A DNA stretch of 43,676 bases from Hydrurus foetidus (taxonomy: Eukaryota), in assembly GCA_900617105.1 (NCBI GenBank), contig UYFQ01000376.1:1-43676 (forward strand). The letters are read 5' to 3'. The position numbers were made by a program, and so were the translations under genes. How positions within the stretch are numbered: position 1 is the stretch's first letter; every line of letters starts with the position of its first letter. Shown here piece by piece: positions 4,008-39,914 of the stretch. The notes under the pieces are model-generated. The model saw only the letters and a list, made by a program, of their open reading frames with translations, did no database searches and was not told the origin of the DNA.

Positions 4008-4686
4008 CCTGAAGGTGACGATATGTTCCCTCTTACCTTGCCTCATGGATCCGTCCTTACTCTTCTGCTCGTGTTAATTGTACTCTTGCAGTGACTCGTC
4101 TCCACCGTACATGTGTGTGAGGTGGGTCCTCTTGATAAGTGTCCACAGTAGAACACAATCCAGGATGTCATATGCGGTCTTGAACTCTTCCTCCTCTCTC
4201 ACCCTACTCTGTGATAGTAGCGACATACGCTTCCACATCATGGGGTAAATCGTACGTTCGTTCTCACGTTGTCTTTTGACGTCCCTCTTCCCTTGAATAT
4301 AGTCGTCCTCCTTAAATTTCGCTCTCGAGCGTTCCGACGCTTTTCGTCTTCTCTCATTTCTTGCCAGTCTGGCGGCGACACAAGCAGGTTTCGCAGCGGT
4401 GTACGCTACGGCCTCTGGGTCAGGCGCTGGCTGTGGTTGACCGTCGACCCTGTCGTCGTCTTCCTCGTCAGAGCTGGAGCTCTCCGACGATGAATTAGTC
4501 CCTGTAGGAAATTCTCGGGAGCTTATATTTCACGTTGGTGGTGGAGAACATGCCCACTATCCCGCATAGTTCGGTTACGATCGTCTGCATGTGCTCTCTC
4601 CATCTGATGATGTTGTTGTGTTTGCCGTATTGAAGCGCACTCTCCTCTGTACTTTTGAAAGCTTCCGCGGCGCGTTTGGGAGGCAT
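4008..4686 (-). pseudogene. gag: Copia-A gag fragment (3'-truncated)
   Basis: MPPKRAAEAFKSTEESALQYGKHNNIIRWREHMQTIVTEL... aligns with Copia-C gag (16671) and Copia-B gag (9733); similarity continues to MRQGKREHIVTF near 4010; contains stops/frameshifts. Confidence 0.85.
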
Positions 4687-4710
4687 TGAAATGCCTGCGA
4701 CAGTCAATTA

Positions 4711-4898
4711 AGTTAACGGATCTTCGATTCGGCCGACATGTACGTGGCTTGGTGTACAGCAGTTGAAGAACGCTCAGTCAAGGCTCGTGAAATAAGCTTT
4801 GTGTTGTCAGTAATCACTTGTTAATTGACTGTGCTTCATCCCTGCTAAAGTCTCCGAGTCCCTTTCAACGCAACAACAAAAGACATTCCTACTCTACA
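4711..4898 (-). repeat. Copia-A 5' LTR, 3' (R/U5) piece
   Basis: Minus strand shares GAAGCACAGT(C/AT)AATTAACAAGTGA and a similar end (GATCCGTTAACT vs GATTCGTCAACA) with the Copia-C LTR; lies 24 nt upstream of the gag ATG, as in Copia-C. Confidence 0.8.
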
Positions 4899-4902
4899 CT
4901 TG

Positions 4903-5099
4903 TGTGGTCTCACTGAGGCCTTGGCAGGAACGAGAATCCGGACGGCGGAGGGCAAAGGTGAAGTGGCTGTGGAACGATGCTAAATGGTAGCAATGTGATT
5001 AGCTTACAGATAAGCACAGCAGATATAATGCAACAAATTGTATGGATCGGATCATCCTCGATCCGAACCGTGCGTACGTTTGTACCCGAACACGGTACA
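4903..5099 (-). repeat. Gypsy-F 3' LTR
   Basis: Direct repeat of 8977-9205, adjacent to PPT; lacks ~27 nt near its U3 start. Confidence 0.9.
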
Positions 5100-5311
5100 G
5101 TGCCCCCTCCTCAAAGAAGAAGCTGGATTTGTCTTTATGATAAATACTAAACTACGTGTAAGTCTATGGTAAGTAACAACAATTATGTTAGACTCAATAA
5201 TAATAATAATAAAAATTATTGCCTACTGACTAAACCTCCTAAAGCATCTCGGATGAGACGCAAAAAAATGGGCGGAATCATCAGTGATATTGTTGTTATC
5301 TTTGTGTCTTT

Positions 5312-5599
5312 TTAGACATAGTCTGACCTGAATTCTCTTGGAATTAGGTGACGTAGATTCTTACTTATAAGAAAATTGTGTAGTTTGTCCGTTTTTCTCA
5401 GACTTCGCCACGGTTCCCAGGTATTACTCTCTGAGGGATAATTGAGCCATTTGACCTCAAATTCTAATGCTCCATAAGATGAAATATTTCCCCTCATATC
5501 TATGATCTCTTCGATGAAGAATTCTAAATAATCTCGACGTGCTTCATCTGTTGGATCAGTGTGCAGTGGATTAAATAAGAAAGTTTTTAATTGTGACAT
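5312..5599 (-). pseudogene. Gypsy-F integrase C-terminal chromodomain
   Basis: EFFIEEIIDMRG...LEFEVKWLNYPSESNTWEPW is a typical chromodomain signature. Confidence 0.88.
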
Positions 5600-7165
5600 G
5601 TGGTATCTACATATGTGCCTACCTCGAAATGTGTTATATTCGGGTTTTGTTTTTCATTGTGTTCGTCATCAGATTCCTTAAGGAGTCTTGCCGCAATTCT
5701 AATAAGATCACTTTGTATCTTTATTATATTTGTTGATGAAATCGTGATATTTTCTGGGATGAGGTTAATTTCTCCTCTTGGAATTAAAATTCCTTCATCC
5801 ATATTAATGGCATTTCCATAGAAGATTTGTGCCGGTGAAATTTTTGTTCTATCATTAATTGTTGTTTTTAATATACGTTGAACAAATGGTAGAATTTCTT
5901 GATAGATTTCTGTTGTTGATCTGTCATACGTATATGCTCGAATATGCCGGTTAACTTCCTTATTCATTCTTTCCACAATTGAATTGTGTTCCGAAGAATA
6001 GGCGAGAATTTTCTGGTGGACTGTGCCTGCGAGTTTTGTAAATTCTTCAATAACGTGGTTGGTAAAGTGAGGGCCGTTGTCAGATCTAAGGAATCTTGGA
6101 GACCCATATCTACCGACGTGTTCCAATAATGCTGTGCATGCCATGCCGCCTTAGCGGTAGCGTCTTTTGTTGCGTATAGTTCGACGAATCGTGTAAATAT
6201 TTCAATCATGACTAGAAGGTATCCTTTATCAGGAAATTGTCCAATAAAATCTATGTTGAGACATTTCGTTGGTTTGTATGTTGAAGTAGTATACGTGTAA
6301 GAGATTACTGGTTCTTTTACCGTAGACATCTTACGGCAACAAGGGCAATTATTGACGAAAGTTTTTACTGCCTCTTTCATGCCCCGCCACACTTCCTTCT
6401 TCGCTTTTAGGTTTCGTAACGTACGTTGTACACCACCATGTCCGACCGTTGCGTTATGGCAACTTCCAATGAGTTCATATTGCTCATTTGTCGTTAATTG
6501 TTTAACATGTAACATCGCGTCCGGATTTCTTTTACATTCTGTTTAAACATAGGCGTGACATCGCGTCTGCAATAACGTTTTCTCTACCTATCCCAATAAC
6601 GGTTTTTCTAATAACGGTACGTAGCCTATCGTATAACCCAATTCCTGCAGGGCGACTCACCATCTGCCAACCATTTTACTCTTGTCTTTTTCAATAAAGG
6701 TAAGATTCTTATGGTCCGTGAGAATTGTAAATCTACGATCTCGTAGTAGTGCGTCGAGGTAAGTACAACAATAATAGAGCGCGAAGGCTTCTTTCTGTAT
6801 TGTTGATCACTTCAGTTGACGAGTTGTTTCTTTCCGTCGACTTCCTGATACAAGTAACCTCCAATATCGTAATCTGACGCATCAGTCATTAAGGTTATTG
6901 CGGCTGTATCGTGTATGAAATACAGCAAGGGGCTCTCCGCAATTCGTTGCTTAATCATATAGAATGCGTCAGGTGCTGTGTCAGTCCATATACAGTAAGC
7001 AATGTTTGCTTTTTGGATGCGTGTAAAGGAGCAACTACATTCGAGTGGTTCGGTACATGATCCCTAGAAGAATTCGTGAGTCCGAGAAACGACCTCAGTT
7101 CTGTCGTCTTTCTTGGCATCGGAAAGTCGGTCACGCCTTTTATCCTTTTGGAACTCACCCCGTAA
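5587..7165 (-). pseudogene. pol: Gypsy-F RT end, RNase H and integrase (frameshifted)
   Basis: ELRSFLGL; TDASD and FTILTDHKNL visible in the minus-strand DNA; HNATVGHGG...CPCC, LNIDFIG, LRSDNGPHF, NSIVERMNKE; homologous to Gypsy-E pol. Confidence 0.88.
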
Positions 7166-7289
7166 CAAAAATCGAAATCCCCCGAAAAAGGGAAGTGTGT
7201 TAGAAGATGTGCATCGATTTCAAAATATTTGTGACCGAGCCGTTTCCATTCGATCCCCATGAGGGATTCGGACCACATTTTGTGCGAGT

Positions 7290-8436
7290 TGTTGCAATGC
7301 TCGTTCATGTGGAAGCGGCAATTGTAACGGTTGTGTCCGCTGCGTTAACAGGTGTGGCACAGCTTGGTGTTGCGGTCAAGGCCGGGGTAACGTCTTTGTG
7401 GCCTCCAAGAATTTCATCCCGAGTGCGTTTTCTGCTGGAAGCTTTTTGTAAAATGCTTTGCAGATTTCTTTCTCGCGCTCAGGTGTGAGGTCGATTCGGT
7501 CTGGGTAGTACAGACTGATGATCTCCTTAAACCGAGTGATCGATGCCTCTTCGACGGATGCGTCAGCGAAGTCGTATGCAAACTTGTATGCTCTGATCTT
7601 CTTATTGCAATCATAGGTCGTATTGGACGTCCGTGTTGCTTGTGAGAAGCAGGCAGTCAAGTATTTCACAATTTGTCGGATCGATAGGGTGACCCCGCGG
7701 ATTACTGGCCAAGTGGAATATTCGGGTTGGGTGTACCCAAGGACCGCCTGAGTCTGAACCTCTGGTAATGATCTGCTGTGTTTTGAAATTGGGCAGGTTG
7801 GCTTGATCGTGGAATGCTTGGATGGTAGTCTGTTTAGCTTCATCATATTGATGAGTGTACGGTGTTGCTGGTAATTCTCGTGATAAGACTGAGGTATCAC
7901 TCTGCTCATTGTCGACGCGTCTGCGTGCAGCCTCTGTTGTTTTAATTTCAACGCGGCGCTTGTCGGAGTAGGCTTCGGAGTAGAGATGGTCTTTTTAGAC
8001 GCATCTTCCTTAGACTCTTTTGTTGATGCAGGTTTTAACTGCACTGCTTTCTTTGTCTTTTGTGGGACGATGATCTTTTTTCTTGTGGAAATCTTTTTTG
8101 TTTGTCTTGGCGGAGACTTAGTCTCGCGCTTGTCAGGAGAAGTGGACTCGACTGATTCGTCTGACGATCGATCGTCCTCATCAGACACTGACTCGGCGAC
8201 TTTAACGTTGTCGTCGTCGTTGTCGTCGATTTCTTCGTCGTTTTCGATGTCATGATGGATTTGTCGATGGCTTGTCTGACCATGATGGATTTGCTTCTAG
8301 CAATGTTATCTGCTTTCATTTTCTCCTCGGCTTTCCGTGCCTTGCAGATGCTAAGCATTGTTGCGCTTGGTAGGCCGAGGGAAGTAATATTGACTCCTGG
8401 GGAGGCTGATTTGTCTAGGATATCTTGAGCTTCCAT
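7290..8436 (-). pseudogene. gag: Gypsy-F gag (frameshifted)
   Basis: Overlapping ORFs 8035-8436 and 7376-8188 downstream of the 5' LTR, followed by a Cys/His knuckle-like stretch (CYNCRFHMNEHC) near 7330; weak similarity to Gypsy-E gag. Confidence 0.65.
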
Positions 8437-8976
8437 TGTCTTCGTCTTCGCTACGTTAATGGTCGATACTTCATTGAAGGGACCGCGACGGAACTCGGAC
8501 GCGGTGGTTTTGGAAAGAAGAAGGATAAGTTGAACTTTTGTGAAGACTGGTAGGTGTAGAGTGGAGTAGCAGGAAAAAAAGGATTGGAATGGTTTGGTCA
8601 GTTTCGAGAGGAAATTGACGAGAATTTCGGGAGGAAATTTCTCGGCGAGGCGTGCGGAGCGTTGCTATTGGGTCTTTAAGTAGCACTTTCGATGCTGAAA
8701 GCTACTACTGGCGTATCGGCTTCCGTGTGACGAAAGTTTTCGATGGGATTTCTTGATTTCGCGAGGAATCGCTGAGATCGAGCTTCGTTAAGACGAAGAG
8801 ATAGAGGCTGTCGCTTTGCGAATCAACTCTCTATATGGTCTAATAGACGTTTCTGTTACAAAAAGCTATTGACAATCTCTGTTCGCTTATAAAATTAGTC
8901 GGCTAGCGGTTTGGGAAATCTTGAGTTGGTAATCGGCTTTCTTCTCGAAAGGCTGCCTGATTCCAAGAAAGCTTAC

Positions 8977-9205
8977 TGTGGTCTCACTGAGGCCTTGGCA
9001 GGAACGAGAATCCGGACGGCGGAGGGCAAAGATGAAGTTGCTGTGGAACGATGCTAAATGGTAGCAATGTGATCTGCTGTGCTTACAGATAAGCACAGCA
9101 GATATAATGCAACAAATTGTATGGATCAGATCGTCCTCGATCCAAACCGTGCGTACGTTTGTACCCGAACACGGTATACCCAGTATACTCGGTGTACGGG
9201 TCACA
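8977..9205 (-). repeat. Gypsy-F 5' LTR
   Basis: Direct repeat of 4903-5099; bounded by TSD CTTG. Confidence 0.9.
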
Positions 9206-9209
9206 CTTG

Positions 9210-9348
9210 TAGTACCGAGCCGAAGCACGGGTCTATTCATCGTCGTCACGCATGCACGTACACACACACACACACACACACTAATCCGTACGTCCGTACG
9301 AACGCATAAGTACACAGATTGTGTTTATGTCATAAACTAAGATATCTC
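9210..9348 (-). repeat. Copia-A 5' LTR, U3 piece (contains a (CA)n tract at ~9259-9281)
   Basis: Minus strand GAGATATCTTAGTTTATGACATAAACACAATCTGTGTACTTATG...CGTACGGATTAGTG aligns with the start of the Copia-C LTR (GATATATCTGAGTATATGACACGTACACAATGCGTGTACTTATG...CGTACGGTTTAGTG). Confidence 0.8.
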
Positions 9349-9706
9349 TGTTGGAGTTTCGCTGTGTGGTGAACTGCCTCTTGTAGAATGTAGGACCGTC
9401 CGGTCGTTTCGTAAGTGTGTGTGTACAACACGAAGTGTAGATCATTGATGCGTGCATGAAGAGGGTTTCATGCCGGCAACACAACTCGAATCTCGATGGT
9501 CTGTTTTAGTTCTTCTAGAGTAGCTAGAGTACGTTGACGTTTGTAAACTTCGTGGCTGGCCGAACAGGGACGACAGGCACAAGTTAAATTATCAGTTGGT
9601 TGGAATCTTGAGATCTTTCCATTTCACGGGTCTTGCAGAGTTTTCGTACTGTTACCGCGTACTTCAAGTAATACGCGGGGCGCTTGCGAATACGAAAAAC
9701 ACAACA
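9349..9706 (+). repeat. Copia-B 5' LTR (358 bp)
   Basis: TGTTG...CAACA termini; near-identical to 13945-14274 plus 16325-16356. Confidence 0.95.
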
Positions 9707-9732
9707 TGATTTAAATTTCCAGGCAGTCGAGA

Positions 9733-12700
9733 ATGCCTTCGAAGAAAGCAGCAGTGGCCGAAAAACCCGCAGAAGGGTGTATCGTTCACTTTGAAAGGGA
9801 CAATAACGCCGTTGAGTGACGGGAGGAGATGTACAACATCACCACAGGGTTGTACGGCACCACTGGAATGTTTTCCCACTTGAATCGCTCGTACAAGTTC
9901 CCTCCAATCCATACGAGAGATTACAATCCGACGTATGTCGAACCGATCGTACCTGGAGAAGCAGCGGCCGGGGATAAAAACGACGGCGAATACGAGAGCG
10001 AGAACGAATCAGACGGTAGTGACGCTGAAACAGTCCAAGGAGAGGACGCACCTCCAGCAGCACCGATAAAAGAGTTCACACAATAGTTCATTAACAAGCT
10101 CCGCGAGGGAGCATACGACCGTCGCCAGAAGTCAATTGAGCTACAGGCCGTGAATGAGACCAAGATATGGGCTCTCATGTGGGCCAAGATGTCACCGGCA
10201 TCACAAAGTAAGGTCAGAGAGGACCCGAGATTCGAGGTGGCGTGCCAGGCACTCGATAGTATCAGACTGTGGAAGCTTATCCGAAAGTCACACTTGACTC
10301 ACATGTACGGTGATTACAACAATATGGCCGCCTTTAAGCTACACGATCAACAGCTGCGTTACAACGCACTACGGCAAGGGGACCGAGAACCCATCGCTGA
10401 ATTCAAAACGAGATTTGATAACCAGATCAAGCCAACAGTAGAGTTGGGATGATCGACACTGCAGAACCCATACGTGAACTCGACTTCATCAGCAAATTGG
10501 ACACAAAGAGGTACGCCGGCATGTTTACAGTGATGCGCAACAATGCGGCCCAGAACTTACCCGGTGCATATCCCAACACACTTGCAGGTGCATTCCGCAC
10601 TACTTCCACTTGGACCCGGGACGGTGCCCTAGTACCCCTTGGATGTAGCCACCATCACTCGGCTTACCTAGCCGATGCTATACACGTAACTAACACAAAA
10701 GACGTAGAAAAGGGAAAGACCCCCCAACCATCTTCCAAGAAGGTTCCTTCAGAAACAAAAAAAGTCATCGTCACTCCAGAGTGTGCTATGCTACGTCTGT
10801 GGAAATTTGGGACACTACGCTTGAGACTGCGACGAGAGGAAAGGAGAACGAGCACTATACACTGCAGCGGAGGATATAGACATCGAAGAAGATGATAAGA
10901 ACGAGTTCGCCTATGTCATGACCGATGAGCCTGTTCTCTTCTCGCAATCTCATGTACTTTTGGATAACCAAGCTTCTGTCAGCATTTTCAGCAACCGTGA
11001 CCTTCTGACGAACGTGAAGATATCAGACAATCAGATCGTGTTAAACGAGGTGCAGTCCAACGCGAAGGGAGTGCGAGTTGACCAAGAAGGGCAGTTCAAC
11101 GAGATCAACAACGTCTACTACAGTGAGAAGGCGACAGCGAACATTCTATCGTTTGCTGCGATGGTCGATGAAGGTGCTCAGATTCGATACAACCAGAAGG
11201 AAAGCCGTTTCACGTTACAACCGAAGGGAAGTCCCAACATCTATAGTTTCTGCAGACAGAGCATACCAGGCAGTGAAGGTAGATTCTATGTCTGTGATGT
11301 GCGATCAATGGTATCAAATCACGCAACGAGTCACCCAACATACGAACATGCATTGGTACAGACGGTGTCCGACAATATGAAGCCCTTCACCAAGAGAGAG
11401 ATAGCTTCAGCGAGTGGTGCGAGAGAACTGATCGCCAGAATGGGATACCCGTCAGTAGAGGAAGCGATCAGCATGCTGAGAGACGGCAGCGACTTCACAG
11501 TCATCAAGCACGATTTCAGAGTCGCAGACATTATCTGGGGTAAATACATTGCATCGATTAAGGGCAAAACGACTGGGAGAAAATCGCGAGCACCGATTCT
11601 AACCATGACTCCGTCAGTAGTACAACAGCAGCAGATACTCTCAATTGATATCATGTATGTAGAACAGGTGGCACGGCACTACTAGTCGCTATATCACATC
11701 CACTCGATCTCACCCTCAGTGTCATATTGGAACACGCAGATACCGGAAAGCCATCTAGGTGTGCAGAATCGGTGAAGAAGTGTTTAAACATCATCATTGC
11801 AACACTAAGGTCAAGGAACTTCATCGTGTCGATAACCATATCAGATGGAGAAGGAGCTATTCCAAAGATCTCAACATACCTTTAGAGGCTGTCTATCGAA
11901 GTAAATGTCACAGGAGCCGGTGGTCATGTCGATCGAATCGAGAGACGGATTCGAATGATAAGAGAACGAATCCGATCACATATAGCAGGCAGTCTACCGT
12001 TTGCATTAACTATTGACGGCTTATCAATGCCTGCTTTATACTGCATATCTCGAATCAACAATCAACACTCGGGTTCAAGGACCGGAGGGATGACACCGAG
12101 AGAAGCATTCTCAGGACAGCGGGTTGCGGGGAATCGGGACTTCTGTGTGGAATTCGGGGATTACTGCCAATGCACAGTCGCAAACATAGACCGCAAACAC
12201 AGAGAAGCACTAAGGACCAGGGGTGACGATGCGAGATTAGTCATCAACAAGGAGCTTCAACAAATGATAGACAAGAAGGTGTGGGCGCCTGTCTTCTATC
12301 ACAGAATGACAGCAAATGAGAGATCAGGCATCATCAGGTCGTCCATGTTCCTGAAGAGGAAGACTCACCCCGACGGACGTTTCGATAAGTACAAAGCCAG
12401 GCTAGTCGCGGAGGGCGACCAGCAAGACAAGAACCTATACGACGACCTATCCTCACCCACAGTGTCGACCAGAGCAGTGTTCACAATCGCCGCTATATGT
12501 GCATTCGAGAAACGTCATGCGGCTGTGGTGGATATTGGGGGTGCATTCCTCAATGCGAGTATGACAACAGGGGTGCCGGTACATATGAGACTTGATAAGA
12601 CTACATCCGACTTCCTGATCACGCTGAACAGAGCGTATGCAAAGTATGCAGATAACAAAGGCAGAATTGTAGTACTACTGAGAAAGGCGCTACATGGATG

Positions 12701-13795
12701 CATCGAGAGTGCAGCATATGGTATGAGAACCTCAGCAGAACCATGGCTGCACTGGGCTATACAAGGAACGATAACGACATATGTGTGTTCAACCGTACGG
12801 ACAGCAGGGGTGTACAGCGTACGGCAACAGTGCACGTGAATGACTTGTTCATCACAAGCAAGAGCAAGGAGCTGATTGCTGAACTCACAGACGGCCTTAG
12901 AGCAAGGTACGGTGAGATCACCCTATCTCATGGTCCACGCATCAATTACTTTGGAATGGTGTTTGACTTCTCCTGTCCAGGTGAAGCACGCGTGAGTATG
13001 TCCCGATACATTGATGAGATGCTGCATTCATCTGGTGTGCAGGGGATAGCGAAGACGCCAGTATCAGATGGGCTATTCGATACAAGGCCGGGTGCAGTCA
13101 CGGCAACTGAGGAAGTAAGAGTGTGGTTCCACAGGGTGACTGCTCAGTTGGTATACCTTGCGAAGCGCGTGAAGCCGGAGTATCTTACAGCCGTTGCATA
13201 TCTTGCCACCAGAGTGACCAAGTGCAGTGTGGACGACGTAGATAAGCTGCATCGTGTAGTGCGGTACATCAGATGGTCTGGTGATTCGGGGCTGGTATTT
13301 AGACCGGGTGGTAGTGGAATATCAGTGAAACTATTTGTCGATACATCATACAGGGTGCATGTGGATGGAAAGTCGCACACAGGGAGCTGTGTGGTAATCG
13401 GAGACATCGGAGCGGTGCACTGCAGGTCGACGAAACAAGGGATAGTTTCCAAGTCGAGCACAGAGGCTGAGCTTATCGGATTGTCTGACTCGCCGAATCA
13501 GGGGATTCACACAAGGATGTTCCTAGTTAACCAGGGGTACTCTATGGGACCGGTGACAGTGTCCCAGGACAACATGTCTTGCATGGCCCTTATTGACAGA
13601 GGCAGGTCAGGTGCTGAAAAGATCAGACACATTGGGATACGCTACTTCTGGGTGAAGGAGCGCGTAAGTACGGGCGAGCTGATACTGGTGCACAAGGGGA
13701 CGAAGGAGATGTATGCAAATATTCTCACTAAGCCGCTACAGGAAGCACAGTTTATTTTTGAGAAAGAATGCCTTACGGGAGGGCCCAAGGTATAA
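9733..13795 (+). pseudogene. Copia-B gag-pol, multiple stops/frameshifts and an internal deletion
   Basis: gag (LRQGDRE, knuckle CYVCGNLGHYA*DC), protease LLDNQAS, integrase SIDIMY, RT YKARLVA/DIGGAFL/HVND, RNase H VDTSY...SSTEAE...QDN. About 0.8 kb is missing at ~12190 relative to Copia-C. Confidence 0.92.
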
Positions 13796-13944
13796 GCGGA
13801 GCTTAGTAATGCCTTACGGTGTAACCAGGGGCAGAGAAAAGCATTGTGCGTTCTATGTTTGTTTAGCTTACTTATAATCACTCATCTCATGTCGTTTGAT
13901 ACGTCTATGCTATTGCAGCCGACCGGCCCTCCATCCTAGGGGTG

Positions 13945-14274
13945 TGTTGGAGTTTCGCTGTGTGGTAAACTGCCTCTTGTAGAATGTAGGACCGTCCGGT
14001 CGTTTCGTAAGTGTGTGTGTGTACAACACGAAGTGTAGATCATTGATGCGTGCATGAAGAGGGTTTCATGCCGGCAACACAACTCGAATCTCGATGGTCT
14101 GTTTTAGTTCTTCTAGAGTAGCTAGAGTACGTTGACGTTTGTAAACTTCGTGGCTGGCCGAACAGGGACGACAGGCACAAGTTAAATTATCAGTTGGTTG
14201 GAATTTTGAGATCTTTCCATTTCACGGGTCTTGCAGAGTTTTCGTACTGTTACCGCGTACTTCAAGTAATACGC
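13945..14274 (+). repeat. Copia-B 3' LTR, left part
   Basis: Matches 9349 onward up to TAATACGC, where the TIR element interrupts; the remainder resumes at ~16325. Confidence 0.95.
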
Positions 14275-16324
14275 GAGCACTGGAACGGATATTGTGGCAA
14301 GACCCCTTACTCAAACGTGTAATTTAAAAAAATACGAATTAATTCAAAATAGTTCAAAATTTCAAATCACAGACTCATAATCCCCTGTATAACTTCACAT
14401 TGCTACATCTTCGTTTCAACATATTCATTGCAACTTACGTCACTTCGAAAAGCTGTCTTGAATGGCGAATCTTATTGATCTACTGCGCTGCTACGTCAAC
14501 CTCCAACATGTCAGATATGCTCCTGAAATTCAAAGTTGACGACCTCTGGAGGACGTCACACAACAACTTTGAGAAAGTTTATGTTGCACGGGAATATAGC
14601 TGATGAGCCTCTACTTGTGGACTATGATGTATTTATTCGGAAAGATCCATCGGCTACTGGATTTAGGAATCTTACGGATGTTATTTGGGACACAAACTCC
14701 AGCAACGCGAGCAGAAAGTTCTCTTTCAATTTGACAGCAGCTGCGGCAAGCATAAAAGAACTTCAGTATTACAGTCAAATTCAGCAAACACCTACAGCCA
14801 AGTTATCTCTTGCTGTAACTCCTGATCCCGAGAATGAATGCGACATGGCAATCCCCGCCGAAACTCCTCAATTGAAGAGATGTAGGATGTCACAAAAAAC
14901 ATCTTACTCATCAGCAACTTTAGCGAAGTATTCGAAAAGCATCGAAACAAAGTTGATCTCACTGCTTCAAAGTGAGATTCCATCAGCTAATACTAGTCTA
15001 CAAAGTCAAGTGCTGAAAGATGTTATGGAAAGGCTTGCGAAAAGATTTGGCCACGGAACAATCGCTCACAATGTTAACGAAGTCATTATGTCAAACATCA
15101 GATCGCTGGTTATGTCACTTAACAAGTTTGGCGTCCATGATAGGGAGACAATTCGATTCAAAGAAAATATAACGCTAGCAGTGTCTGGGGACATCTCATC
15201 ACAAAAATTGGAAGATGCGACGAGCTTATCCAGGAGGGTACTTTTGCACGGTAGGAAAATGCGCACCATCTTTGACTGTGAGACAACAAAAGCCATCGCT
15301 GAGAATCATACGGGGCAAAATGTCGATATGTTAACAAAGATGTCAGATGAGGAAAGTGTCAATGATACCACAAGTGTTGGGACAAGCAAGTACGTTATAA
15401 ATAGCTCGAACAAAATGTTGCGGAGAACAATACTCGTGAGTGATCTGATTTTACCAGCTGATCTTCATGATATCACTCGTAGTCAGCTCCTCAGATGCGA
15501 ACTAGTAAAAGTCCAGAAAGCAGGGAAGCTTATCGACATGAGTACTCTAAAATTGAGTGATATAGAGACACTTCGTGAGCTCGAAAGTGAAATGTAGCAT
15601 CGCAGATTAGTATGCAGGATTTTTGCCACAGATGATACAAAGCTGCTTCTGAGAGCGCGGTTGTCAACATTTAATACAAACTTGTCGACTCTCAAGAAAG
15701 AACGACTCAACTTTTTATCAATCTCTTCCAAAACGAGAAAGAAAAATCTCCTTCTTGTCGAATGGAAAGAGAGAAGTTGCGAACGAGCCGCAAAGTAAAA
15801 TTAGGAGTACTGCGATCGAAGAATATTCAATTGTAGTCATCAAAGATGAACATCGCGAAGTACAACCTTCAATGGACTATTAATGGCTACAGGAGAGTAG
15901 CATTTATGGCGTCAAATACGTCCTCTCCGCGACCTCATAAAATCATCCTCGCAGGTTTTGCCGCGGCATTTAATTCCTGGACGAAATCAATTTTATCATC
16001 AGAACATGTCGGAAGAGCTTTGTCTTGAAAAGAACGACTCACCAATTTGTCCTTCAACCGATTTGACTAGTGAAATTTTTCACTGCATGAGGCCGTTCGG
16101 AAATCGAGCCAGAATTTTTTTGCATTAGTGTCAACTTCTGCATTTGACAAGCCAGGCAAATCAATCAATGACTAACGGTCATTTTGTGCATAAAATCGAC
16201 GACTCTCGTGCAGTCGTCGCTGAGTTCTTTTAGTATCTCTGTTATATCGATGTTGATCGCAATGATCAGGACAGAGGAATCGTTATAATCCATTTTCCGT
16301 GCCACAATATCCGTTCTGGTGCAC
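14275..16324 (+). mobile_element. TIR DNA transposon-like insertion (~2.05 kb), superfamily unresolved
   Basis: 23-bp inverted repeats GCACTGGAACGGATATTGTGGCA (14277-14299) and TGCCACAATATCCGTTCTGGTGC (16300-16322), 2 mismatches; absent from the matching 5' LTR; short TSD ambiguous (GC, ACGC or ACGCR). Confidence 0.85.
14536..15597 (+). CDS. Hypothetical protein inside the TIR element, possibly a truncated transposase N-terminus
   Basis: 353-codon open frame between the TIRs (first ATG at 14581); no DDE motif recognisable by eye. Confidence 0.45.
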   Translation: MTTSGGRHTTTLRKFMLHGNIADEPLLVDYDVFIRKDPSATGFRNLTDVIWDTNSSNASRKFSFNLTAAAASIKELQYYSQIQQTPTAKLSLAVTPDPENECDMAIPAETPQLKRCRMSQKTSYSSATLAKYSKSIETKLISLLQSEIPSANTSLQSQVLKDVMERLAKRFGHGTIAHNVNEVIMSNIRSLVMSLNKFGVHDRETIRFKENITLAVSGDISSQKLEDATSLSRRVLLHGRKMRTIFDCETTKAIAENHTGQNVDMLTKMSDEESVNDTTSVGTSKYVINSSNKMLRRTILVSDLILPADLHDITRSQLLRCELVKVQKAGKLIDMSTLKLSDIETLRELESEM

Positions 16325-16361
16325 GCAGGGCGCTTGCGAATACGAAAAACGCAACAATCTC

Positions 16362-16646
16362 TGTTGATATATCTGAGTATATGACACGTACACAATGCGT
16401 GTACTTATGATTTGCGTACGAGCGTACGGTTTAGTGCATGTGCGTCGGTCTATTGGATCTGCGCACACCGCAAGTGCAATTGTAGATCTGGTACCGATCA
16501 TATGTATTTGAATGGACCCGTTGCTACTTTGGAGGAAGAAGCACAGTATAATTAACAAGTGACAATCACGAGCCTTGACAATCTCGAACTCGCGCCGCTG
16601 TGCCCACCGTACTCCTGTCGGCCACCAGACCCCAGATTCGTCAACA
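16362..16646 (+). repeat. Copia-C 5' LTR (285 bp)
   Basis: TGTTG...CAACA; near-identical to 43280-43584 apart from a 20-nt indel and a few substitutions. Confidence 0.95.
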
Positions 16647-16670
16647 TAATTAGACTGTCTCGGCATTGTA

Positions 16671-18155
16671 ATGGCTTCAAAACGTGTTCCCGAAGCAGTG
16701 AAAAGTGCAGAAGAATGCATGCTGCTCTATGGGAAGCACAACAACGTCATCAAGTGGAAGGAGCACATACAGACGATGGTTACCGAGCTATACGGTATCA
16801 TCGGGATGTTCTTTACCGTGAACAAAAGATACCTACTTCCGAGAGTATCGTACGCGGATTACTCGTCGGAAAGCGGAAGCTCAGAGTCAGAGGACGAGGA
16901 GGTGGATCCTGACGCACCTGTCTTATCACCTGAAGAGATCGTCATACTCGCTGCCGAGAAAGCGGCGCGAGCCACCGCAAGAGAAGCGAGAAATGGATGC
17001 AGATGGAGAATTGCCGAGAAGGCAAGAGTGAATTTCCGCGAAGACGAATATATCCAGAGGAAAAAAGACCTCAAGACACAAAAAGAGAACGAACGTACGG
17101 TATATCCAATGATGTGGAAACGTATGTCTCCAGCCTCACAGAGCAGGGTGAGAGAGGAGGAGGATTATCAGCTAGCGTATCTGACCCTGGATTGCATCCT
17201 CCTGTGGTCTCTTATATGAAAGACATATCTTACGCACATCTTCGGGGACTCGGACCCCATAAACGACGTAAATATGCACGAACAGGAAAACAAGTACAAC
17301 TCACTCAGACAGGGAGAGCGAGAGTACATTTCCACATTCAAAGTCCGATTCGATGAACAAGTAGCGGCAAACGCCGGAGTAGGGGTGGCAGAGATAACAG
17401 AGTCGCGGAGAGCTCTGGACTTCATTATGAAGCTGGACCCAAAGAGATACAAGAAAATGCATGATGACATGAAGAACGATGCGCTCCGATGCGTTGTCGA
17501 CGCTTACCCCGAGACGTTAGCGGCTGCCTACCGAGTCGCGTCTCAGTGGACGGGCAGCGAGCACACCCAATACGCCGGTGCGGCGGGGAGCCCGGCGGCA
17601 TTCGTTACAGACGGGGCGCTACTGACGACTAAGGACCCCGAGAAGGAACCGGGTAAAACCGGGGGTGCTAGGAAGAAGAGTGCACTAGCTAACATCACAT
17701 GCCATGTATGTGGACTCAACGGGCACTATGCAAGGAACTGCAGCGAGCGAAAATCGTCATCGGAGAAAGCACACGTCACTACAACCGACGATGTCGACTC
17801 AGATGGTTTCGATGTAGCACTAGTCACCACGGTGGAAGCATGCATCTTTTCTCGATATGACGTATTGTTGGATAATGAAGCCTCGCTCAACATATTCAGT
17901 AACGGAGACCTGCTTACGGGATTGAGAAAATCAGACAAGGCGATTAACGTTGGAGGAATTTAGCTTGGCGGTGGAGTTGTCGTCGATCAGCAAGGTGATT
18001 TTGGGGAGTTGGGCCGAGTGTACTATAGCGAAGCGGCTTCAGCAAATATTCTGTCCTTCGCATCGCAAGTGGATTCCGATGCCGAAATTCGATATGACCA
18101 CAACCATGACGTGTTCACGCTAAACAGCTCCAACATTTATCGAATCGGGCGTAAG
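16671..18155 (+). pseudogene. gag: Copia-C gag and protease
   Basis: Same-frame ORFs 16671-17219, 17274-17963 and 18009- separated by single stops; zinc knuckle CHVCGLNGHYARNC; protease LLDNEAS. Confidence 0.9.
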
Positions 18156-18480
18156 TGTTACATTCGTTACTTCATATCAATCACACGTATGTACATACAC
18201 AACGCACGTCACTCGTAGCCACTAGTTTTTCGGACCAGTTTTCGGTTTCTGACTGTTCGACAACTTCAACTCGAGACATACTCCATCGTAGCTAATCTCA
18301 CACTCCTTTCACATCTTATTAACTAACGTTACTGAAAACCCAAAACCAACTTCGACTCCTTTGAGTCAGCCAAATCCCTTGCTCAGTCCAATTCGTCTGA
18401 CAAGATCCCCAGTTGCACCAATCTGCCCAACTGGACAATTCACGTTTCATCTTCGACCAGCTCGTCGAAGCCGTGACACA
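18156..18480 (+). repeat. Gypsy-D 5' LTR
   Basis: Direct repeat of 39584-39908 with about 3 substitutions seen. Confidence 0.92.
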
Positions 18481-18667
18481 GTAAACATGAGACAACGTTT
18501 ATTACAATCGACTCCCCTCAGTTGATTCGTTTCTTACACGCCAGAAAGCAGTTAACGCCCTGGCTCAGCGAGATTCAGAATCTCTGAGGTAAGTGAAGTC
18601 TAAATCCAATACGTTCGCAAAGCCACTCCAAGAAGAACAGGTCTACATCTCCTTTCTCTTTTAAACA

Positions 18668-20284
18668 ATGTCGGAAGGAAAGGGAATCCAAACTCAAGAC
18701 TTGAAGAAGGAAGAAGCAAAGAAGAAGATCGAGGGCTTAAAAGAAGATCAGACAGAAAATGCAATTCTGGAGCTCAAGGATATGTTCTCCCAATTTTTGA
18801 TATCGAGCAATCAAACTCAGGCTAGCAACCGCACCGACATCAACGAATTGAAAGAGGCAATCAAAGCAATTAACAGATCTAACACTCAGTCTCCAATGGG
18901 CTCGGAAAGCATGTTGACCGTTAGATCTCGTGGCAGCAGAAGATCTTCAATGTTCTTCGGCATATCTCAACCTCCATCAACCCCACAGCTTATGGATACG
19001 CTCCTCGCAGATACGCCATTCAAATCAAACATACAAGTGCTTCAAGCCGATATCGTATACGACAAGGAACTCAAAGTCAGTTCACTTGAAGGTCTTCAAT
19101 CCTGGCCACGAAATTAAAATGGCTCATATGGTTTCCTACAACCTACGTCCACACGTCGGAGCATCGTGGAATTCCCATCGTTATCGAGAATCTCTCATAA
19201 CTGGCCTTGAATCCAACGAAATTATGGTAGAAGATTGGCTATCTCTGTCAAATTCGGGAGTCCAAGCTATCCTGGTAGAGGCTGCCAGGTCACGCACAAA
19301 AGAACTCTACTCGAAAGAACTCATCCTATTTCTCGGCAAAGGAATCCCACAGGCCCCATTCATAACCACCGAGAACTTCTCCAGTACGTTTTATGCCCCA
19401 TTAATGAAGTCACTAACCGACTTACATCACTAGCACGAACAAATCAAAGATACCGGTCCAAGCCTATGGAACTAGGGACAGCCCTGGCCAAATTGCCTTA
19501 TGGCTCATCTCCTTGGGCACACAAAAAGACTCAATCTTACAGTGGCTTAGTAAGGACGAACTGGTTAAACACAAGACTTTAGAATCATCAGTCAAGTTCA
19601 TCAGAGCCAGGCTCATGGAAGGCCGCGCCCAAAGCGAGTCTCGTCAAGACTTTGATGCAACGCTATGAAGATTTACGCTACACTCAAGGCGAATTCCATA
19701 CATGCCAGCAGATCTCAACACTTAACCGCCCGCAGTTTACCACCCCACGCAGACATGACAAACGACTGCAGTCCAACTTTTCATCAATCGAGCTCTGTAC
19801 CCAACAGATGTCATCCACATATGACAATGAAAATGATGAGGATACAGAAGATGAAAATGCGCCTACATACTCGGCTGAAGATCTAGATCTTTCAAATGAC
19901 GCGGACGCGGAAACATCTACTGATGATTCACTTCTTGCAATCAGTACAGATCAGCATCGTTCACGCTCAACTGTTTCTGCTACATTTTGTGGATTTTGCA
20001 GCGAATCATTTGTCTACGGTAAATGCACACGCCAGAGTTCTGGTTGCACCTTCGACCATTCAACAGCAGGTCAAGAACGCTGCATTCAATCATTTACACT
20101 ACTTGCCAAACATGAGCTCCAACAGCATGGACAGCTCGAGCTATGGTCTTCGCCAAAACAAGAACCAAGTAGCAACTTGAAAACAAACAACTCACAAAGC
20201 TTTAAAACCACCAGCTCCACGAACTTCTGTGGAGTCATAAAGCCTACTTATCCGTCCACCTCGACACGTCCAAATCAGAAATAA
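18668..20284 (+). pseudogene. gag: Gypsy-D gag-like region (frameshifted)
   Basis: Consecutive ORF fragments between the LTR and protease; Cys/His cluster FCSESFVYGKCTRQSSGCTFDH. Confidence 0.6.
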
Positions 20285-20311
20285 GATTTAGCGAGGCCTT
20301 CCTTTGCCGAA

Positions 20312-21656
20312 ATGCATATCGAAGATCGCCTCGCCTCCTCTAATGACTATCCCCATCCGACTATCTTTGACCCGGACAAAATCCTAACGCAAGCACTGCT
20401 CAACCAGCTAGCATCTGCAACATCTGCTACGTCACAAACTCTATGTCAACCCTTCATTCGTTCTGGTACCATTGTAACTAACACTGGTCTGATGTCTTTC
20501 AGTCGTGGTTTACTTGATACTGGCGCACAGGGAAGCAACTTCATCTCCAGAGAGCTATACGACAGCCTACCTCCAAATGTTACTGACCTCAGTCGTCCAA
20601 TCGATAAAATTGTTCGCCTCGGCGATGCTCGCTTCCTGTCAATTCAACTTGAAGTTCCACTCACTGTCGGTATCCTGGATTCCACCAACAACAATCATCA
20701 ACATCGCCTCTGGTACAGCGTCCTTGACATCTTAAGTCATAACATTATCATTGGTTTGATTGATCTCATCGGTCCATTCTACGACCTATTCGCTGATTCT
20801 GTCCTAACAGCACGCCAGTTATCAATCACCAATGATCTAGGAACAAATTTAACATAAGATATAAAAGCAATAAGTAAGCTTCGTCTTCAACACAATCAAG
20901 AGGACGTACTAAAAGCCATCTACATCTTCAATAGCTTGTCCGCTCGTAATAGCACCCAAAGCAACAGCTCCATTTATACGGCTCTGCGGCGACTATCGCC
21001 CTATTAATTCATTTATTAACATCCCACAAGAGCCAATACCACACGTCCAACAGTCCCTTTCAAAAGCTGCTGGTTGGAAAATCTTCGTCGATCTCGACAT
21101 GACAAATTCATTCCATCAAATTTCTACCGATGACTTTAGTTCCAATCTCCTCTCTGTATCTACACCATGGGGATTGTTCCGGCCAAAGTTTCTTCCGGAA
21201 AGAGTTGGTCCAGCATCTGGTATTCTGCAGTCCATCGTTCGCCGTATCTTCGCCGACTTCGACGACTGGATTATAGTCATCTTTGACAACTTTCTCATTC
21301 TTGCCTCCGACTACCACGATGCTCTGTTGAAACTTGAGCAGGTGCTACACCGTTGTCAAAAGTATGGTCTCGTCCTAAAGATGAAGAAGTCTTGGATAGG
21401 TACAGACGTTGTTACGTTTTTTGGATACGAAGTTCACCCTGGCTCATGGCAGCTCTCGGATGCACGCAAAGCTGTCATCTCATCGATGGTCTTCCCAACA
21501 ACACAAAAACAAATGCAAAGCTTCTTAGGAGCAGCAAACTTCTTCCACACTCACATTACCAATTTCGCCTCATGGGCATCCGCCCTATACGAATGCACTA
21601 CCGCTGGCTTCAACTGGGACCCTTCAACATGGAAAACCGATTATAACCATTTGTTC
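20312..21656 (+). pseudogene. pol: Gypsy-D protease and RT (5' part of pol)
   Basis: Protease LLDTGAQGSNFIS; RT from ~20915 reads ACPLVIAPKATAPFIRLCGDY, DLDMTNSFHQI, STPWGLF, IFDN, QSFLG; apparent deletion between PR and RT. Confidence 0.9.
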
Positions 21657-21671
21657 GTTCTCTGTTATGTG

Positions 21672-21827
21672 AGAGATTTCTTTTTCTCTGTTATGTGAGG
21701 CATGGTCGCGTAAGTACGTATCTCTCATCCTCACATATGCCTTGTCTTATCTTACATTTGGTCGCACTCGCATGGATGTCTGGGTATCCCTTAAAAAATT
21801 GGGGTCGAGTAGCCCGTCCCCTTCCCC
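21672..21827 (-). repeat. Split direct repeat B2
   Basis: Near-identical to 22217-22372. Confidence 0.92.
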
Positions 21828-21899
21828 AGAGCACCCACGGGTGATCAGATAAAAAAAGGTGAATCTAAAATAACAAAATAGGCATGGCTGGCTACGGGG

Positions 21900-22205
21900 T
21901 AAAAAACGTTCCGAACGGATGTATGAGTGCTGAGAAAACTCAATTCTAAAATTGTGCGATCGTATCTCAGTATCTTTTCTGCGATTGGATTGTCAATTGG
22001 TTTTGAACATCTGTCATTACATCTCATAACCATGGAATTCGAGCGGTCACAAGTCGAGATCCAGATCCAAATCGATGTGTACATCCGAAACGTGGTGGTG
22101 GGTTCTGGTTCACCGGCATAATTCAAAATCTCCTCTACTGTCCAGAGAACCCATCCTGGAGTTCTCTGCGGCACGCGAGCTTGCGAGGCTCCCCCCATTC
22201 TCTGA
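21900..22205 (-). repeat. Split direct repeat A2
   Basis: Matches 27714-28019; one substitution seen (GAGCGGTCAC vs GAGCTGTCAC). Confidence 0.92.
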
Positions 22206-22216
22206 TTCTCTTCCCA

Positions 22217-22372
22217 AGAGATTTCTTTTTCTCTGTTATGTGAGGCATGGTCGCGTAAGTACGTATCTCTCATCCTCACATATGCCTTGTCTTATCTTAC
22301 ATTTGGTCGCACTCGCATGGATGTCTGGGTATCCCTTAAAAAATTGGGGTCGAGTAGCCCGTCCCCTTCCCC
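22217..22372 (-). repeat. Split direct repeat B1
   Basis: Near-identical to 21672-21827; begins 25 nt after the YR stop. Confidence 0.92.
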
Positions 22373-22397
22373 CAAAATGCTCCGAAGGGGCCGCTGC

Positions 22398-23570
22398 TCA
22401 TCCCGCTGTGTGTGGAGGTAACCAACTCCAGACATCCTTAGTTGTGAGCTTAGTACCACCAGCGTTGGAGTTTGATGCTAATGGACCTTGTGCTCCCGAG
22501 TGATAGTCGTAAACTCCCCTCATTACCTGAGATCCTTCCACATAGCCCCCTCTATCCAGCATGTCAGACTCCGACACTCCCATCGCCCTCATTTGGGTCG
22601 TTGCTCCCTTTCTTAGCGAGTGGGACGAAAAATAGTTTGGCGGTAAACCAGCATCCTTGCAGATTCCTTTCACCGCATTCCTGACCATTTTTCCCCACAG
22701 TGTCTTCCTATCAAGTTGGTTCGAGTTCTTCCTCGCGAGGTATCTGCAGAACAACTCGTCCGTTGGCTTTACTCCTGAGAAAGCCACGAATGTGACTAGA
22801 TCGTCCAAGAACTGGGCTTCCTCTGCTGATCTCCGGCCGACCACCTTTGCTTTTACAGGTGCTCCTGTTTTCTGAGTAGATGCATGTACCTGGAACCCCA
22901 CCACGGCTGATGTGCAGCTGTTACCAAGCCGTACCTCAGTAAAGAATGCTCCTCCTCCGATGACCTGATAGTCCTCTAAACCATTGACGACGGTAAAGAT
23001 TAAGTCTCGGCATCTAACGCAATGATCTTCAGCATCCACTTCGTGGCTCGTATATTCCGAGACTCTAGCATCCATTTCATATCCCCACATACAGCCTATG
23101 TATGTCATCCTGCAGTCCATGTCCACTCGGTCCCAACCTCGGCCCTCCCAGAGTTTCTTTCTCAAATCTATAAGAAGGCTTTCGCATATCGGGATTTTGG
23201 TCGTCGTGCTGGATGGTCCGTCCTTCTTATCTCGCAGCTCCTTTACAGTCAGACGACATGCTGCTCGCGCGGCTGTTATCATTGACGATTCCAAAAAGGC
23301 AGTGGAATGAAGGGCCGCAATGAAATGCAGTCGGATTCCAGCCGTGATGGCCGTTGCCTGCTTCTCCCTTGCTCCCCCTTGGTGACGATTTTGCAATAAC
23401 AACGCGACCGCTATAGATTTTTGTTCATCTGGCCAGGTTGTCAGCAAAGGGCATGTCTCGCCGAGTTCCTCCGCAAGAAATTTGCACCAGATTCGCCAGT
23501 GACCCTCGTATGTTTTCTCTGTCTTCCGAGTAACCGACGACTTGAGGAAGACTCCTAAACTAGTTGTCAT
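22398..23570 (-). CDS. Tyrosine recombinase
   Basis: ARVSEY (catalytic R), K in TQKTG, SSHSLRKGATT (HxxR), DRGGY...VY; intact 390-aa ORF. Confidence 0.92.
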   Translation of the reverse strand: MTTSLGVFLKSSVTRKTEKTYEGHWRIWCKFLAEELGETCPLLTTWPDEQKSIAVALLLQNRHQGGAREKQATAITAGIRLHFIAALHSTAFLESSMITAARAACRLTVKELRDKKDGPSSTTTKIPICESLLIDLRKKLWEGRGWDRVDMDCRMTYIGCMWGYEMDARVSEYTSHEVDAEDHCVRCRDLIFTVVNGLEDYQVIGGGAFFTEVRLGNSCTSAVVGFQVHASTQKTGAPVKAKVVGRRSAEEAQFLDDLVTFVAFSGVKPTDELFCRYLARKNSNQLDRKTLWGKMVRNAVKGICKDAGLPPNYFSSHSLRKGATTQMRAMGVSESDMLDRGGYVEGSQVMRGVYDYHSGAQGPLASNSNAGGTKLTTKDVWSWLPPHTAG

Positions 23571-23597
23571 CGCTGAGGAAATTCTGTGGCCTGTGAT

Positions 23598-26039: not shown

Positions 26040-26126
26040 GGTAACCTCTCGTAAGATGATCTTATTTCCCCCTGGGTCCCAAACACTTCCTTGTGGCAGC
26101 CTCCTCAGAGTAGTGCCACCCTCATC

Positions 26127-27668
26127 CTACTTCTTCATTTTGTCGAGGTGCGCTAACGCTATGTCTCGTAGAGCGTCCAGTAGTCTACCAATGGTTGCCC
26201 GCACCGTAAAATCCGATAACTTTGAAAGGAGCAGGTGCCGCTTTGGGCATTCTTTTCCCTTTGAGCATATTACCCGATTGCCCTTTCCTGTGACGACCTT
26301 GAGTTGCTTGAGGATATGGTAAGAACAGATGCTCTCCGGTGTTGCCTTAGCTGCTTCAACCTTTCCCGTGCGAATAGTGGGCACGAGCTTCAAAGTCGGT
26401 TTGATGTACGTCCTAAAGTGAAGGTCTTGCCGGACCACATTGTCCCCCGCGAGGCTCGCCACGGTTGCTGCCAGCATTGATGTCAGTAGTGCTGCACACC
26501 CCGCTGGACTCGACAGCACGATATCAGGGAATGCGGCCGAGCGACTCTCACTTCGAATGGTCTTGCCCCACCTGCCCAAGCAGATGTCTATACTGTGTTG
26601 GAGTAGGTCGTCGGGCACGAGCTTCATGGGGTCGGAGGACCCGGTTAATGTCTCCTTGAGTGGTGTCATACACCCCGCAAATGCTGGGGAGTAGAAGACC
26701 CTCATCGCAATCGAAAGCATGTCTATGCTGTCCGATATCTTCCTGCGACCTTTGAGTGTCGGCGTTTCTGTCAGTGCAGGTCCTCCAGCTCCGAACACTT
26801 GCAGGCCAAGGTCCCCGTCGACGCCGAACTTGGCCTGCACGAAGGACGACACCGCTGCCTTGTCCTTTGCGATGGCGAGGTCGGCAATGTGCAAGATGAG
26901 TGGTGCATCCTGGTAGCATCCTGTTGTATCCAAGCTCGGGTCCAAAGCTGCCGCCCAGATAGACTGAAGGTATTCGCTTGCTTGGAGCACATGGCCCCTG
27001 CCTGCTATGTCCAGTTCCCTCCCCTGTGTGAGCCGCCAGACTGGTCCGAGCTCCACCTCTCTCTTCGCTGATTTTGCCATATCTCGACAACTCCTTCTAC
27101 CCCCATCAAGATCCTCCAGATATGTTTTCACTGTCGCCTCACCTGTAACTGTTGGCGCCGGCACCCCAACCTCGTCCTGCAGCGCCTCCCTTGAACGCTT
27201 CCCTGATCCCGTGGCCGGCCCCATCATCGCATTGGCCGTTGCTAGCCAGTCCCCAGTAGCAATCAAGAACATTCCCGGAGTTGGTAGCTTGACTAAGCAG
27301 CCTACTGCCAGAGGAATATCTTGCGGTTCCCCGCTGTAGCCGATGAATGAGGCATATGTAAAATGTTGGCCCGGAGCTCCACGCAATAGAAAAAAGGCGT
27401 GATCGGAGCTTCCAATATAATCAAAGTTGATGGCTTCTCCAGTGTTGGGAAGCCTCAATGGAAGAAAGAATACTGATGCCGTCGTTGGCGACTTTAATAA
27501 AGCAACGTTGTAAAGTTGAAGGCGCTCGTAATCCGCGGTTGACTCCAGTATCAGTACGCTAGCCATTGCAGACGTCTCCAGTAGTATCCCGTCGATGGCC
27601 AAATAGTTCGGCAGAAGACTGGCGAACAACGAGGTAGTGTTCAGCTCTGTAGTAGCTGGAGATGCCAT
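26127..27668 (-). CDS. gag-like ORF1 of the YR element
   Basis: Intact 513-aa first ORF after repeat A1; C-terminal Cys/His cluster (CSYH...CSKGKECPKRH). Assigned by position. Confidence 0.75.
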   Translation of the reverse strand: MASPATTELNTTSLFASLLPNYLAIDGILLETSAMASVLILESTADYERLQLYNVALLKSPTTASVFFLPLRLPNTGEAINFDYIGSSDHAFFLLRGAPGQHFTYASFIGYSGEPQDIPLAVGCLVKLPTPGMFLIATGDWLATANAMMGPATGSGKRSREALQDEVGVPAPTVTGEATVKTYLEDLDGGRRSCRDMAKSAKREVELGPVWRLTQGRELDIAGRGHVLQASEYLQSIWAAALDPSLDTTGCYQDAPLILHIADLAIAKDKAAVSSFVQAKFGVDGDLGLQVFGAGGPALTETPTLKGRRKISDSIDMLSIAMRVFYSPAFAGCMTPLKETLTGSSDPMKLVPDDLLQHSIDICLGRWGKTIRSESRSAAFPDIVLSSPAGCAALLTSMLAATVASLAGDNVVRQDLHFRTYIKPTLKLVPTIRTGKVEAAKATPESICSYHILKQLKVVTGKGNRVICSKGKECPKRHLLLSKLSDFTVRATIGRLLDALRDIALAHLDKMKK

Positions 27669-27713
27669 AGTATAGAGCGGTATATCGTGCTGGATACTTG
27701 ATGAGTATCGTGC

Positions 27714-28019
27714 TAAAAAACGTTCCGAACGGATGTATGAGTGCTGAGAAAACTCAATTCTAAAATTGTGCGATCGTATCTCAGTATCTTTTCTGCGATT
27801 GGATTGTCAATTGGTTTTGAACATCTGTCATTACATCTCATAACCATGGAATTCGAGCTGTCACAAGTCGAGATCCAGATCCAAATCGATGTGTACATCC
27901 GAAACGTGGTGGTGGGTTCTGGTTCACCGGCATAATTCAAAATCTCCTCTACTGTCCAGAGAACCCATCCTGGAGTTCTCTGCGGCACGCGAGCTTGCGA
28001 GGCTCCCCCCATTCTCTGA
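27714..28019 (-). repeat. Split direct repeat A1
   Basis: Matches 21900-22205. Confidence 0.92.
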
Positions 28020-30048: not shown

Positions 30049-30052
30049 ATGC

Positions 30053-39908: not shown

Positions 39909-39914
39909 GCATAA

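Follow-up and report, generated by a model that had tools for sequence, protein, structure and literature searches.

Covarying complementarity between the LTR and the primer binding site suggests self-priming in a Copia retrotransposon lineage

Known routes of priming and the Copia lineage of the window

Copia retrotransposons normally bind a host tRNA at the primer binding site (PBS). In Tf1 the RNA's first 11 bases pair with the PBS instead and RNase H cleaves between base 11 and base 12 (PMC7175516), and two more duplexes that flank the central one are needed, an arrangement described as a 'pretzel' (bioRxiv 10.1101/2022.12.06.519325). Self-priming has likewise been predicted for Tj1 (PMC4600332). 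Tf1 and Tf2 of Schizosaccharomyces pombe and the Tf1/sushi group, which includes Tj1 and Tcn1, are Ty3/gypsy chromoviruses. Within Copia, self-priming has been predicted for the plant lineage TAR, where 89% of 203 elements carry an LTR complement of at least 10 bp, and Neumann et al. (2019) cite an earlier self-priming proposal for Houba, Osr-1, TAR members (PMC6317226). The initial annotation of the DNA analysed here had named only isolated proposals of self-priming in Copia and so overrated the novelty, since the prediction for TAR covers a whole plant lineage (PMC6317226).

The window, a stretch of 43,676 nucleotides forming contig UYFQ01000376.1 of Hydrurus foetidus, contains the related Copia elements Copia-A, Copia-B and Copia-C. 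Their lineage carries the RVT_2 domain with no chromodomain match, and the Ty3/gypsy order RT-RH-INT followed by a chromodomain, as in the Tf1/sushi group, was found in none of the eight polyproteins. The match between LTR and PBS varies from 9 to 25 nt, compared with the 11 bases of Tf1, and the pair of duplexes that flank the centre of the Tf1 pretzel was not detected in 31 elements of this lineage. The lineage resembles TAR in its Copia superfamily membership, 5-bp target duplication, single Gag-Pol frame and self-priming predicted from an LTR complement; TAR has been described from plants (PMC6317226), and the weak Pfam profile of the lineage of the window suggests that it is a distant one. 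The diatom lineages CoDiI and CoDiII, whose primer sites are not treated in the main text of their description (PMC2806351), are similarly divergent Copia elements of aquatic microbial eukaryotes, a likeness of description only. Fungal GalEa elements, with their Conserved Hairpin Site, are also Copia without a tRNA PBS, and one frequent GalEa site following the LTR, CTAATTAGT, shares an AATT core with the sites of this lineage; their complement is described 12–41 bp downstream, with none reported in the LTR (PMC5445492), whereas in this lineage the complement covaries and is located upstream, within the LTR. In half-tRNA-primed elements such as Osser, Bryco, Bianca and FunCo1 a conserved PBS that matches an internal tRNA segment would be expected; the PBS examined here is conserved at positions 2–4 only.

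Nested elements of the window and the site after the LTR

Among the nested elements that make up the window, Copia-A is a Gag-only remnant, with neither pol nor a 3' LTR in the window. Its gag (4008..4686, minus strand) is broken and truncated, with a frameshift and stops and no pol after it, and the Gag ATG lies 24 nt past the LTR end. The 5' LTR is on the minus strand in three pieces totalling about 336–339 nt, compared with 325 nt in L001, a relative of the same family. The 3' part, comprising the end of U3 and the predicted R-U5, is found at 4711..4902 and has a terminal base unlike the CA of its relatives. The middle part (9206..9343), 79% identical to the start of the Copia-C LTR, was cut off by a Gypsy insertion, and the first 10 nt, starting TGTTG (43585..43594), were displaced by the insertion of Copia-B and Copia-C. 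The LTR end of Copia-A was placed by homology to Copia-C and L001, while the ends of Copia-C were set by its direct repeat and target duplication. The element inserted in the Copia-A LTR is a Gypsy chromovirus with integrase and chromodomain (4903..9205, minus strand), flanked by a 4-bp duplication CAAG at 9209–9206 and 4902–4899, and has no part in the priming structure. Had the LTR beside the PBS been its own, this would have been an ordinary Tf1/sushi-type case; that assignment was ruled out, as the Gypsy element stops at 4903 and has a separate target duplication. A Copia pol at 2–2743 was also considered as part of Copia-A and rejected, since it lies on the opposite strand with 24% identity over 160 aa to a full-length relative; judged by strand and identity it is a different element.

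Copia-B (9349..16356) and Copia-C (16362..43584) are both on the plus strand, broken, and ordered Gag-PR-(INT)-RT-RH. The 3' LTR of Copia-B is interrupted at about 14276–16322, and Copia-C, whose target duplication is ATCTC, has nested elements inside. The sequence ATCTC occurs three times, at 9344–9348, 16357–16361 and 43585–43589, because both elements entered one site at nt 6–10 of the Copia-A LTR, which may point to the beginnings of related LTRs as preferred targets. The 2-kb insert at 14276–16322 has inverted ends and a 356-aa frame without Pfam match, and is possibly a DNA transposon. A region at 21895–28027 (minus strand), inserted in a Gypsy pol, gave a weak tyrosine-recombinase match and has 300-nt direct repeats; it resembles a DIRS/Ngaro-type retroelement. 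Units of 178 nt form a tandem array at 30486–31319, within a Gypsy leader. In two of the window's Gypsy elements (8950–8976, minus strand; 18479–18510) the 5' LTR is followed by no TGG and by no self-complement of more than 6 nt, and both have GTAA within 3 nt of the LTR end. No tRNA was detected in the window by ARAGORN, and Rfam gave no match at 4500–5150.

The first bases past the Copia-A 5' LTR, at the PBS position, are TAATTGACTGT (4700..4710, minus strand, read 4710–4700). Their exact complement within the LTR, ACAGTCAATTA (4822..4832, minus strand), is immediately preceded by a C, begins 122 nt before the LTR end, and is the predicted RNA 5' end and self-primer. Both the presence of TAATTGACTGT rather than TGG after the LTR and the exact complement 122 nt before its end had been proposed in the initial annotation and were confirmed, the former by direct reading of the minus strand. 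From base composition, about 9e-5 exact complements of the Copia-A 11-mer are expected in a 339-nt LTR, and among 12,356 sampled window positions an upstream exact complement of at least 11 nt was found once and of at least 10 nt nine times. The annotation had further given a pairing of 12 bp that included 4711/4821. This is true of the Copia-A copy, where 4711/4821 forms the 12th base pair, but not of the family: another base occupies position 4711 in eight contigs, at a depth of 6,016 of 6,097 (run X1), and L001, with the LTR end TCAACA, pairs over 10 bp. The 12th pair is a private substitution of one copy, the LTRs of its relatives terminating in CA, and the family pairing is therefore 10–11 bp, starting right after the terminal CA.

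Among contigs of run X1 aligned to Copia-A, some have a single extra base within the LTR motif, behind position 4824 in seven contigs and behind 4826 in five. These insertions agree with the PBS of Copia-C and with another PBS variant, TAATTTGACTG, read from a loose end, though no single contig joined motif and PBS. Peaks of depth across the motif block were set aside, as contig depth is not a copy number. Two metagenome runs with matching contigs came from sediment and fresh water.

The PBS of Copia-C is TAATTAGACTGT (16647..16658, plus strand), and both this site and its LTR motif are one base longer than those of Copia-A. The complement in the 5' LTR (16543..16554, plus strand) forms 11 of 12 pairs, and an identical 12-mer is present in the 3' LTR at 43461–43472. 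In Copia-B the PBS (9707..9717, plus strand) and its 5' LTR complement (9581..9591, plus strand), which again has a C just before it and an identical 11-mer in the 3' LTR (14179–14189), form nine Watson-Crick pairs and one G-U out of 11 in the window copy. An alternative base at 9708, seen in one other contig in each of the runs X1, X2 and X8, turns the G-U into a normal pair, giving 10/11. Copia-A, Copia-C and Copia-B thus differ by an indel and substitutions, yet pair over 11/11, 11/12 and 10/11 positions respectively. The mismatch of Copia-B and Copia-C is present in both LTRs, which means that those copies were made with an imperfect site.

Pairing across metagenomic relatives and the proposed priming

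A set of relatives was collected using RT/RH patterns, the best 80 of 580 confirmed metagenome stretches giving 78 loci, to which L001 was added. A total of 44 were dropped because they had no Gag start or less than 250 nt upstream, and one because it had no ACA end, leaving 34 that were tested blind, with the LTR end picked by a YYAACA-like rule and pairing ignored. Within this best 80 of 580 sample a perfect self-complement of at least 9 nt, starting from the first base after CA, was found in 25/34 loci, and of at least 11 nt in 13/34. When the PBS was compared with the LTR of another element (1,122 pairs), 0.5% reached at least 9 nt and 0.09% at least 11, while the corresponding values for 3,437 other ACA sites were 0.2% and 0.06%; p-values treat related rows as independent. 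The nine misses comprised two wrongly chosen ends (L026, L066), a TA end (L074), two wrong ATGs (L021, L031), two single mismatches (L007, 10/11; L055, 15/16), one broken match of 13/17 (L060) and one locus with no match (L009).

Ends set by hand gave matches of at least 9 nt in 44 of 49 loci from the best 80 of 580, with a median of 10 and a maximum of 25 nt, counts that are biased because the ends were chosen partly by looking at the pairing; L043 was left out and 29 loci had no locatable junction. The five exceptions were L009 with no match, L031 and L060 with broken matches, and L007 and L055 with one mismatch each. The site after the LTR started with TGG in 0/34 loci of the blind set and 0/49 of the hand-set loci, again from the best 80 of 580, and the motif was inside the LTR wherever both LTR borders lay on one contig. 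In two related loci (L010:255–285 and L013:120–145) a self-complementary site of 15 nt apparently follows the CA at a distance of 2 nt, or else the LTR ends in something other than AACA.

The 44 matched sites contained 42 different first 9-mers, each fitting its own LTR rather than those of others. Three members of one clade, L076, L077 and L062, are 85–90% identical in RT-RH and have sites of 25, 19 and 21 nt that differ from one another, each perfectly matched by its own LTR. Positions 2–4 of the PBS were AAT in 34/49 loci, with no conservation beyond them. A comparison of own with other LTRs in which the motif was chosen by best match was circular and was set aside. Pairing is thus kept across families while the letters change, as was looked for among family copies, and no TGG-type site was observed.

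The 5' edge of the match fell on a C|A step in 19/31 loci and within one base of it in 24/31, against a CA background in the LTRs of 5.9%; rows were treated as independent in this count, and Copia-A and L051 were left out. The first paired A was preceded by C in 19/22 cases, compared with a background of 19%. An initiator-like C|A is expected at this edge if it is the transcription start. No peak was observed for a TATA box at a fixed distance upstream of the motif. Diatom genes have been suggested to carry an initiator-like motif, TCAH (PMC4686930), and oomycete promoters are described with an initiator and no TATA box (PMC3599244). The C|A bias lends independent, though indirect, support to the earlier suggestion that transcription would start at or near ACAGT. 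The motif starts 59–223 nt before the LTR end, a plausible length for R-U5, and at its 3' edge AATT(A/G) is kept from family to family.

When RNA was folded from the motif start, the duplex had a pair probability of 0.96 in Copia-A and above 0.5 in 27/30 loci, the weakest duplexes having about −5 kcal/mol. In the predicted fold of R-U5-PBS the duplex forms, but the Copia-A segment as a whole is no stabler than shuffled sequences (z 0.12). Flanking helices of the Tf1 type were no longer or stronger than with a shuffled LTR in 31 elements (p 0.36–0.81), a test in which the final 22 nt of the LTR did not serve as a target and short helices could have escaped detection, so the lack of an excess is either a real difference from Tf1 or a limit of the test.

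The PBS is complementary to the LTR, lies right after the terminal CA, changes in step with the LTR motif and has a C|A at the 5' edge of its match. These observations point to a Copia lineage that probably primes minus-strand DNA with the 5' end of its own RNA, in the manner of Tf1, and not with a tRNA. The same proposal in the initial annotation, for the Copia-A family, is supported by the pairing kept with changing letters and by the lack of a TGG site. RNA polymerase II would start at the A of the C|A step of the motif, and the first 9–25 nt of the RNA (10–11 in Copia-A) would fold back onto the PBS over a loop of about 50–210 nt. A cut after AATT(A/G) at the 3' edge of the duplex would free a 3' end for reverse transcriptase, the cutting enzyme probably being the element's own RNase H, by analogy with Tf1. 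With every cycle, plus-strand synthesis would write the primer into the PBS again, so that the match would be kept perfect up to the cap site while its letters drift. The imperfect copies of Copia-B and Copia-C, the non-matching loci, the absence of flanking helices, the lack of a TATA box at a set distance and the weak folds were counted against this mechanism.

The C|A step also bears on a second reading, in which the primer would be the motif copy of the 3' LTR, the RNA ending or being cut at AATT(A/G) and annealing to the PBS by its 3' end in cis or in trans. The motif is indeed present in both LTRs, its conserved AATT(A/G) edge could be a 3'-end signal, and the lack of Tf1-type flanking duplexes makes a cut-free route conceivable. 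This reading is nevertheless unlikely, since it does not predict a C|A at the 5' edge, the match halts sharply after 9–25 nt as a cap site would force, and a poly(A) tail would block the RNA 3' end as a primer.

It is quite improbable that the duplex is instead a conserved structural stem, acting in packaging, dimerisation or translation control, with priming by something else nearby. The duplex begins at the first base after CA, the point at which a primer has to stop if the DNA terminus is to be correct, and a tRNA-type site occurs within 0–5 nt in 0/49 loci. Perfect matches of up to 25 nt with almost no G-U are also unlike a selected RNA stem, although the Gag ATG lies only 14–55 nt past the LTR end in most loci and the fungal GalEa Copia elements have a hairpin of unknown role at the PBS position with no LTR complement described (PMC5445492). 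That a half-tRNA or some other piece of a tRNA pairs with the PBS, the LTR match being secondary, is very doubtful, for although Osser, Bryco, Gymco-II and Bianca use half-tRNAs (PMC6317226), the FunCo1 PBS matches an internal region of tRNA-Lys (PMC5445492) and the AAT at positions 2–4 would suit such a primer, the 9-mers are nearly all different and fit their own LTRs, and close kin differ throughout the site.

Lineage of the elements and meaning of the proposed self-priming

The assignment of Copia-A to Copia in the initial annotation holds, with the link made via Gag only: with a Gag-Pol relative of 1,614 aa that has RVT_2 near its C-terminus, the Copia-A Gag shares 73% identity in a stretch of 63 aa and 57% in one of 147 aa. 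Copia-B and Copia-C match this Gag-Pol along most of its length. RVT_2 was found in Copia-B, Copia-C and 8/8 full-length relatives, with RT-RH C-terminal, while the integrase before RT-RH gave no Pfam match and was read from acidic-residue motifs and position. Ty1/copia traits are present in the 5-bp ATCTC that flanks Copia-B and Copia-C and in LTRs of the form TG...CA. A junction between PPT and LTR of the GGGGTG|TGT type was found in 54/68 loci with sequence past RH (best 80 of 580), and is kept despite RT identities of 33–55% (L007–L084; window 13938–13950).

The RVT_2 match was weak in 8/8 polyproteins (69–89 bits), and in the same eight no match was obtained to rve, gag_pre-integrs, SH3_retrovirus or Retrotran_gag_2, nor to RVT_1 or Chromo. 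The weak RVT_2 and the missing Pfam domains suggest a distant lineage. RT-RH identity among 56 loci of the best 80 of 580 had a median of 45% and a minimum of 33%, so most rows represent separate families. In a quick tree with SH-aLRT support only and no outgroup, since the window's other Copia dropped out with too few aligned columns, Copia-B and Copia-C sit in a supported 14-row clade within the relative set. The first RNase H aspartate is kept in 66/70 rows, and the last acidic site, usually D in an ADxxTK motif, is N in 27/70 rows, including Copia-B and Copia-C (regions of 13717 and 43125).

No named relative was present among the matches listed (120 per RT search), all of which came from metagenome or run assemblies, and a PDB search yielded nothing but zinc-knuckle matches, with E values above 0.001. 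With Gag patterns no relative turned up in the viral or metagenome contigs searched, and with RT patterns none in the viral contigs searched. In a bacterial MAG (G001; L001–L006) this eukaryotic Copia lineage is present on at least four contigs, which are contamination; a Gag match in 1/19 genomes of one MAG's genus was the MAG already known. The 20 runs listed as carrying the sequence included no RNA run. Clusters of Gag look-alikes in the ESM Atlas were mostly eukaryotic, with Bacillariophyta commonest among the few members assigned to a phylum, which is a lead only.

The mechanism itself is known, being proven in Tf1, and has been predicted before in one plant Copia lineage, TAR. A literature search, in which subscription journals were thinly covered, found no paper on a self-priming protist Copia lineage. 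Here it is proposed for a broad Copia lineage, apparently a separate one, in which covariation is strong, primer length varies and a pretzel was not detected. We tentatively consider that this may be a deep lineage, widespread in aquatic microbial eukaryotes, whose self-priming arose independently of that in Tf1/sushi and TAR, is simpler in form and uses a primer of free length (9–25 nt), reaching from the cap site to AATT(A/G) without a pretzel.

In the literature consulted, self-priming has been experimentally shown for Tf1 and only predicted for Copia, in plant TAR. That the PBS and its LTR partner change together across a large lineage argues strongly, by comparison, that Copia enzymes are able to do without a host tRNA. 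Annotation tools that need a tRNA PBS would miss or down-rank such elements. If the proposed mechanism is true, the PBS would be a running record of the transcription start site of each family. The finding also bears on whether hairpin formation and self-priming are ancestral or have repeatedly arisen, as discussed in PMC3601003, and since a start site and a primer length can be predicted for every family separately, that question becomes testable.
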